Below are positions 54,893 to 55,404 of a stretch of DNA of 64,000 nucleotides, piece after piece. The notes beneath the pieces were generated by a model. It searched no databases. It saw only the letters and a program-made list of their open reading frames with translations, and was not told the origin of the DNA. A program made the translations under genes and the position numbers. The stretch is from assembly GCF_056712565.1 (NCBI RefSeq), contig NZ_CM160072.1. One strand, 5' to 3'. The first letter of the stretch is position 1; the number at the start of each line of letters is the position of its first letter.

Positions 54893-55404
54893 TAAGCCTG
54901 GAGATTATCTACACCTGGATGGACATCATTGTACTATGCCCCGTACATGCCCCATCACATCCTCAACATCAAAGTATTAGAGCCTTGCAAACCATTATGC
55001 GTCTCAGTTTGTCTCATCTATCTTACGCAAAAAAAATAGAACTAATATCAAGCGGCGCTATATTGCGTATTAAATAAAACCACCTCAATTACATTAATAA
55101 ATCTAAACAAATATCATGCAAATAATTTCCATGGTTATTTTTAGGCTATTTAAATTAAAAAAATAAATTATGAGTCAAACATAAATAACAATCTTTAATA
55201 TAATTTGACTACCAAATTTATATTCGTTCACAAAATAGTCATGCATTGTGTGCAATAGAAACAGTTCAGATAAAAATAGGGAACTACTTCACAATTTAAA
55301 TGAGAAACTAAAACTTACATCTTGAAATAATCTCATTGATTAGATGAATATTTGTAGTGCAGTGACATCATTTTTAAATAATAGTTCAAATAAAAGGGCT
55401 CACG

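Follow-up and report, generated by a model that had tools for sequence, protein, structure and literature searches.

The lowest GC content of the window, by which we mean the whole 64-kb stretch of DNA analysed here, falls between the core gene yedK and the porin gene that follows it. What occupies this spacer, and does it serve the porin? With yedK ending at 54892, the last base of its stop codon, and the porin gene starting with its ATG at 55405, positions 54893–55404 represent the entire spacer, 512 bp in length. Its GC content is 30.1%, compared to 50.0% for the window, and only 0.3% of the 512-bp windows scanned across the 64 kb are equally AT-rich. The AT-richness is uneven: positions 54909–55075 have a GC content of 40%, the extreme part being the 329 bp adjoining the porin gene (24.6%), a value reached in 0.1% of the 329-bp windows. 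The spacer carries a run of eight As (55029–55036), a run of seven As (55157–55163) and three runs of five, in agreement with an earlier note on this DNA, which had described it as very AT-rich with long A/T runs. The pieces of the window that were tested are 100% identical to E. coli ZJ3920 or to the type strain DSM 30083.

Judged by the alignments presented below, the spacer is a composite of 16 bp of core flank, 167 bp of filler and a 329-bp phage-homologous region. Our main reading, to which we assign a probability of roughly 0.85, is that it combines the promoter and control region of an NmpC-type porin gene, derived from a phage, with a short non-coding filler, and that it forms the border of a decayed prophage island. 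The region is organized as follows.

54224–54892, + strand: yedK, SOS-response-associated peptidase (NCBIfam PRK09951, 1.9e-147), with its stop codon at 54890–54892
54893–54908, no strand assigned: core flank 3′ of yedK, 16 bp common to K-12; the blastn match ends at 54908
54889–55077, + strand: 62-codon open reading frame (ORF) with a TTG start, overlapping the yedK stop; a chance ORF
54909–55075, no strand assigned: island-specific filler, 167 bp, 40% GC, present at one locus
55076–55404, + strand: lc/nmpC-type regulatory region with promoter and 5′ UTR, 329 bp, 24.6% GC, lambdoid-prophage-derived
55405–56487, + strand: NmpC/Lc-type general porin, CFT073 c2348, 360 aa (NCBIfam OmpC subfamily, 1.8e-156)
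56624–56643, + strand: intrinsic terminator of the porin gene, an 8-pair hairpin (6 G-C) with a T-run after it

The junction between yedK and the prophage remnant

The gene order is fliC...amyA-yedD-yedE-yedF-yedK, the spacer, the porin gene (+ strand), ybcM, ybcL and emrE (all on the − strand) and then fliE. yedK, which bears this name in the 100%-identical strain ZJ3920, is the last core gene before the island, and both yedK and ybcL match their NCBIfam families. The blastn alignment with K-12 breaks at 54908/54909 and resumes at 59045, inside the intG integrase remnant; in place of 54909–59045, K-12 carries yedL, yedN and part of the intG pseudogene. The two marks of a genomic-island junction, a sequence absent from K-12-type genomes and a sharp breakpoint beside a core gene, are thus both found next to yedK. 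The earlier note had suggested that this stretch marks the left junction of the island, which the end of the K-12 match at 54908 supports, and had named as contrary evidence an alignment to core genome common to island-less strains; strains without the island lack the sequence.

The window and K-12 carry alternative cassettes between the same breakpoints, the 4.1-kb porin-ybcM-ybcL-emrE cassette in the window versus a 2.1-kb cassette with yedL, yedN and part of intG in K-12. The cassette edges (54904–54909 and 59045–59049 in the window; 4507–6563 of the K-12 locus) share only a TTATC microhomology, beyond which no att-like direct repeats were seen at the island edges.

Positions 55076–56772 align to the nmpC gene of DLP12 and its upstream region with 84–89% identity, and positions 56772–57851 align to the ybcM region. 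The DLP12 block from Q to ybcN and all lysis and structural genes are absent from the window cassette. In an intact prophage, the porin gene is located between the Q antiterminator and the holin/lysis genes; here, it is flanked by yedK and ybcM. The 4.1-kb cassette is a collapsed DLP12-like prophage remnant, comprising the porin gene, ybcM, ybcL, emrE and an intG fragment, and located between yedK and fliE.

The porin gene itself has 84–89% DNA identity to DLP12 nmpC. We assign it to c2348 because CFT073 c2348 (nmpC precursor) and c2349 (ybcM) adjoin in the same order. The adjoining AraC-family gene, ybcM (56989–57786), corresponds to c2349, which is listed with the highest-ranking fitness genes of a transposon screen in systemic infection (PMC3855560). 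DNA resembling positions 56668–56800 lies under an annotated IS200/IS605 tnpA gene in some genomes (3 matches).

The filler and its open reading frame

The 167 bp that follow the junction are found at this locus only, in 1,554 of 5,426 complete E. coli genomes and with 95–100% conservation. Such a distribution is what one would see if the spacer were ancestral core sequence of the yedK-fliE intergenic region instead of island DNA. However, the filler is missing from K-12-type genomes, which diverge at 54909, it always accompanies the ybcM-ybcL-emrE island, even when the porin gene is deleted, and the rest of the spacer is phage-homologous. We therefore regard an ancestral core origin as very unlikely. 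Neither sensitive blastn of the filler nor tblastn of its ORF returned a match in 50,697 phage records, sensitive blastn of E. coli genomes returned nothing away from this locus, and no RNA structure signal was detected at 54893–55080 on either strand (z = 0.03 and 0.82). The filler would be functionless DNA, left behind when the lysis and structural genes of the prophage were lost.

The 62-codon ORF coincides with the filler and ends where the phage homology begins. The earlier note had pointed to this ORF, without recognisable identity, and to its overlap with the yedK stop: the ORF and the overlap do exist, but it is a chance reading frame and not a gene. A real small protein, translationally coupled to yedK, would account for a frame that overlaps the yedK stop and that stays open both in the window and in B2 strains, and a few databases carry it as a hypothetical protein. 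The start codon is however a TTG, and relatives do not preserve the frame. In the five porin-deleted genomes with an IS200/IS605 insertion that were inspected, which belong to a class of ~1,074 genomes described below, the insertion replaces the TTG start in all five, and an A8-to-A9 change at 55029–55036 shifts the frame. Among 5.8 billion proteins, the ORF is represented by only seven near-identical E. coli/Shigella clusters with inconsistent called lengths (46–95 aa) and has no homologue beyond E. coli and Shigella; it matches no NCBIfam family and no phage sequence by tblastn. A coupled small protein is so improbable on these data that we rejected the ORF as a gene: its start is lost and its frame is shifted in relatives, and its homologues are near-identical copies only.

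The porin control region

Positions 55076–55404 have 81–85% identity to the sequences upstream of lc in phage PA-2 and of nmpC in DLP12 and phage 434, and to ~36 phage records. This homology starts at 55076 and not at the island junction, 54908/54909. The comparison with nmpC upstream regions that the earlier note had recommended thus bears out its proposal of horizontal acquisition and of a regulatory region for a porin. When compared to seven aligned phage and prophage copies, identity climbs toward the porin gene: 71% in the distal part (55076–55260), 88–92% in the promoter part (55261–55358), 89–96% in the UTR (55359–55404) and 98–100% in the first 66 coding bases. Gene conversion between the two nmpC copies of one genome, rather than selection, could account for the high identity close to the porin start. 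Phage porin promoters of this kind have long been known; the spacer is a paralogous copy of one plus filler, and its novelty is low.

The first 66 coding bases (55405–55470) are identical in six of the seven aligned copies, with 65 of 66 matches in phage 434, whereas the same copies are just 84–89% identical across the whole porin gene. They include the heptamer CAGTGGC (55418–55424), the complement of a sequence at the 5′ end of RybB, an sRNA. nmpC has been reported as a RybB target (PMC3333887).

All start-site and factor-binding data used below were obtained for the DLP12 paralogue (~90% identity in the promoter) and were moved over to the window by alignment. The elements placed in this way are listed here.

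55278–55293, + strand: putative CRP site core AGGGA-N6-TCACA, centred at about −73.5 from the predicted start, a class-I-compatible position
55314–55333, + strand: OmpR-type box, CTTACATCTTGAAATAATCT, overlapping the −35; probable repressor site
55322–55327, + strand: predicted −35, TTGAAA, positioned from the K-12 start and invariant in all aligned copies
55346–55351, + strand: predicted −10, GAATAT, with an 18-bp spacer to the −35 and invariant in the aligned copies
55359, + strand: predicted transcription start, a G, placed by K-12 5′-RACE and alignment, giving a 5′ UTR of ~46 nt
55394–55398, + strand: Shine-Dalgarno sequence AAGGG, 6 nt before the ATG, kept in the 8-copy alignment (AAGGA in E. 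albertii)

In K-12, deletion of positions −199 to −1 of nmpC removes an active sigma-70 promoter, and 5′-RACE identified a 'G' as the start, described as identical to the one in Blasband 1986 and Coll 1994 (Onstead 2024, PMC11677980). An OmpR ChIP-exo study reported a repressive nmpC peak located 43 nt away from the annotated start, at 576106–576166 in old coordinates (PMC5438342). This distance puts the K-12 start either at −45, a G, or at −131, an A, the latter if the sign given in the table (+43) is taken literally. The −45 position is preferred because 5′-RACE reports a G and −45 is a G. Transferred to the window, these data point to a sigma-70 promoter with TTGAAA as the −35, GAATAT as the −10 and a start near G55359. 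The −10 is weak (3/6) and lies 7–8 nt upstream of the predicted start, and the promoter was not called in a consensus promoter scan.

The position of the start bears on whether the spacer is transcribed. The earlier note had called the stretch a 510-bp leader, which does not hold in the RNA sense, as the start mapped from the K-12 paralogue lies ~46 nt before the ATG. One might nevertheless suppose that the whole 510 bp are transcribed as a regulatory leader of the porin mRNA, such as a riboswitch, a thermometer or an sRNA-docking platform, from one of the consensus promoter-like sites located far upstream (55088–55117 and 55195–55224), and the start at −131 obtained from the literal take on the ChIP-exo table would go with it. 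Yet the G found by 5′-RACE fits −45 and not −131, and promoter-like matches in the consensus scan number four, versus 5.9 expected from shuffles. Moreover, no Rfam family was found in the 54500–57000 interval scanned (E ≤ 1), the structure of the UTR and early coding region is ordinary (z = −0.56), and the distal part of the spacer, which such a leader would include, is the least conserved. A consensus terminator scan found no terminator within the spacer. A long leader RNA is hardly credible on this evidence, and we retain the short 5′ UTR.

Activation of the promoter by CRP is suggested by both sequence and literature. The CRP core has 8 of 10 matches, 0.25 such sites being expected per shuffle, and the CAP site annotated at 1363–1383 in the PA-2 lc record (J02580) aligns to 55276–55296. 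Its TCACA half-site is invariant in 8/8 aligned copies and in E. albertii. The K-12 nmpC promoter is described as CRP-activated, through two operators, and as subject to repression by OmpR, IHF and MprA (PMC11677980); CRP binds nmpC in Genomic SELEX (PMC3105977), and nmpC is down 6.3-fold in a cya mutant (PMC4512719). For IHF, the spacer contains no exact consensus and a single one-mismatch match, compared to 1.8 expected.

The case for OmpR is of another kind. The box CTTACATCTTGAAATAATCT matches box C1 of ompC at 12 of the first 14 positions and at 13 of 20 overall; however, 13/20 is reached in 77% of Markov shuffles and is not significant. A position weight matrix (PWM) was built from six ompF/ompC boxes, each found verbatim in the K-12 ompF/ompC upstream regions, which we take to be footprinted OmpR sites; applied to the spacer, it gave p ~0.06, not significant in this AT-rich background. 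The search for OmpR-site-like repeats proposed in the earlier note thus yields a single box, which is not demonstrable by sequence alone. As for the ChIP data that it had also proposed to consult, conversion of the K-12 coordinates by the 777 offset of ompF places the peak between −118 and −58 relative to the nmpC ATG and centres it on the counterpart of this box, which differs from CTTACATCTTGAAATAATCT at the last base only (T for A). The box overlaps the −35, a position that fits repression.

The composition of the region suggests another function. The spacer may be mainly a target of xenogeneic silencing, in which a coat of H-NS keeps the porin gene quiescent and relief at 37°C produces thermoregulation. 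The DNA is horizontally acquired and its 24.6% GC is the lowest in the window, both consistent with silencing. In CFT073, both nmpC copies, including c2348, are preferentially expressed at 37°C when compared to 23°C, as RNA and as protein (PMC12890032), and K-12 nmpC is likewise expressed at much higher levels at 37°C than at 23°C according to the literature. On the other side, no match to the high-affinity H-NS motif was found within two mismatches, versus 1.6 expected, and a literature search found no paper tying H-NS to nmpC. NmpC was detected in 89% of the outer-membrane proteomes of UPEC (PMC9609314); as c2348 is also expressed, the gene is not silent. Silencing as the main function is a possibility that we hold to be unlikely overall, although a role of H-NS in thermoregulation is plausible for DNA of 25% GC and could complement the promoter model without displacing it.

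In the promoter model that we favour, cAMP-CRP bound ~73 bp upstream of the start would activate the porin promoter and OmpR bound over the −35 would repress it, the transcript having a 5′ UTR of ~46 nt with a normal Shine-Dalgarno sequence. The less conserved, AT-rich distal 200 bp would probably accommodate further modulators of the K-12 type (a second CRP site, IHF, MprA) and perhaps bind nucleoid proteins that contribute to the 37°C preference. Factor binding and the direction of regulation are here transferred from the K-12 paralogue.

This model can be placed beside known porin regulatory regions. PnmpC of K-12 (DLP12/qsr′) is homologous over the 329 bp, with ~90% identity in the promoter and ~95% in the UTR. 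As in PnmpC, an lc/nmpC-type porin gene lies directly 3′, the homology is at the nucleotide level, and a predicted CRP site is located upstream of the promoter. The CRP cores are aligned, the −35 and −10 are identical, the OmpR-bound box differs at its last base only, and the porins share 65–66 of their first 66 coding bases (98–100%) and the same signal peptide. In contrast, the distal halves are just 71% identical, and the DLP12 upstream part, comprising the essD 5′ region, a hairpin and the first CAP site, gives way in the window to 167 bp of unrelated DNA. The window also lacks the Q antiterminator and lysis genes that flank the DLP12 region, and K-12 nmpC is broken by IS5 whereas the window porin gene is intact. 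The PA-2 lc region (J02580) is 84% identical over window positions 55076–55500, through the first 96 bases of the porin coding sequence; unlike the window region, it sits between the porin and holin genes of a live phage, and its first CAP site (1067–1087) lies outside the homologous part and is absent from the window.

The ompC promoter, with its C1-C2-C3 boxes, is also AT-rich and OmpR-controlled, and the single window box resembles C1, with TTACAT.TTGAAA in common. There is however no overall homology between the ompC upstream region and the spacer (local alignment score of 21, versus a shuffle mean of 20.7), and ompC has three activating OmpR boxes upstream of the −35 where the window has one box over it. 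An OmpR-activated promoter of the ompC/ompF type was considered and rejected, as the three tandem 20-bp boxes are not found and the 20-mers on either side have low scores.

The OmpD-type porins of Citrobacter, Enterobacter and Salmonella have 78–81% amino-acid identity to the window porin but a different signal peptide. The expression of Salmonella ompD is CRP-dependent. Upstream of these genes, the likeness to the window is limited to the short motifs AAACTTA...TTGAA and the TCACA half-site, and the CAGTGGC motif is conserved in their early coding sequence, as in the window porin. The Salmonella ompD UTR is 69 nt long (PMC3333887). By blastn, the upstream regions of OmpD-type porins of Citrobacter, Enterobacter, Klebsiella and others have no homology to that of the window, short motifs excepted, and in a cross-genus footprinting of 80 listed porin loci from outside Salmonella and E. 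coli, a homologous leader was found only in an E. albertii prophage copy. Citrobacter, Enterobacter, Raoultella and Lelliottia have a conserved block of their own, ~70–200 bp upstream of the OmpD-type porin genes, which contains GATC..GATCACA, GAAACTTATTATTGAA, TTTAAAAAT and CATTGACGA. This block and the Escherichia/phage nmpC leader share only short motifs, the AAACTTA-TTGAA spacing differing by one base.

Distribution of the spacer and loss of the porin gene

The full spacer is present in 1,499 of the 5,426 complete E. coli genomes. In 455 genomes it directly adjoins yedK, the arrangement of the window; in a separate count, it is matched at at least 99% identity in 400, and a further 632 genomes carry the DLP12-type paralogue only. 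Two length-variable tracts distinguish strains, one through gain or loss of a TAAA unit within ttaaattaaaaaaataaatt (55155–55160) and the other being the A8/A9 run at 55029–55036.

A deletion that begins at codon 15 of the porin gene and ends shortly after its terminator (55446 to ~56677) is found in 1,074 of the 5,426 genomes, which keep the spacer and the remainder of the island. In these genomes the promoter, the UTR and 14 codons followed by a stop remain and now face the 3′ end of ybcM, and the deletion junction carries a short duplication, AGATTTAATAACAACGA being present twice. Every porin-deleted genome inspected has an IS200/IS605 element, with an intact TnpB/InsQ gene and a tnpA pseudogene, inside the yedK stop codon (7342–9000 of the E24377A locus; insertion point at 54891/54892 in window terms). 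With the insertion, yedK gains one codon and overlaps the 3′ end of tnpB.

In the orphan copies, the −35 and −10 hexamers and the TCACA half-site of the CRP core retain their sequence. About a fifth of all complete E. coli genomes carry such an orphan promoter, now directed at the antisense strand of ybcM-ybcL-emrE. It might act as a nutrient- and temperature-responsive antisense or interference promoter for ybcM and for the EmrE-like efflux pump, a speculation that we consider doubtful. That many A/B1-type genomes keep this promoter without its gene is a minor curiosity of evolution.

For annotation, this study places the left end of the yedK-fliE island at 54908/54909 and discards a spurious ORF; beyond annotation, its importance is slight. 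The CRP/OmpR model of K-12 nmpC would be transferable to the intact NmpC porin, c2348, of ExPEC/B2 strains. NmpC, an abundant outer-membrane protein, could as a general porin bear on permeability, on phage and colicin sensitivity and on vaccine-antigen work.
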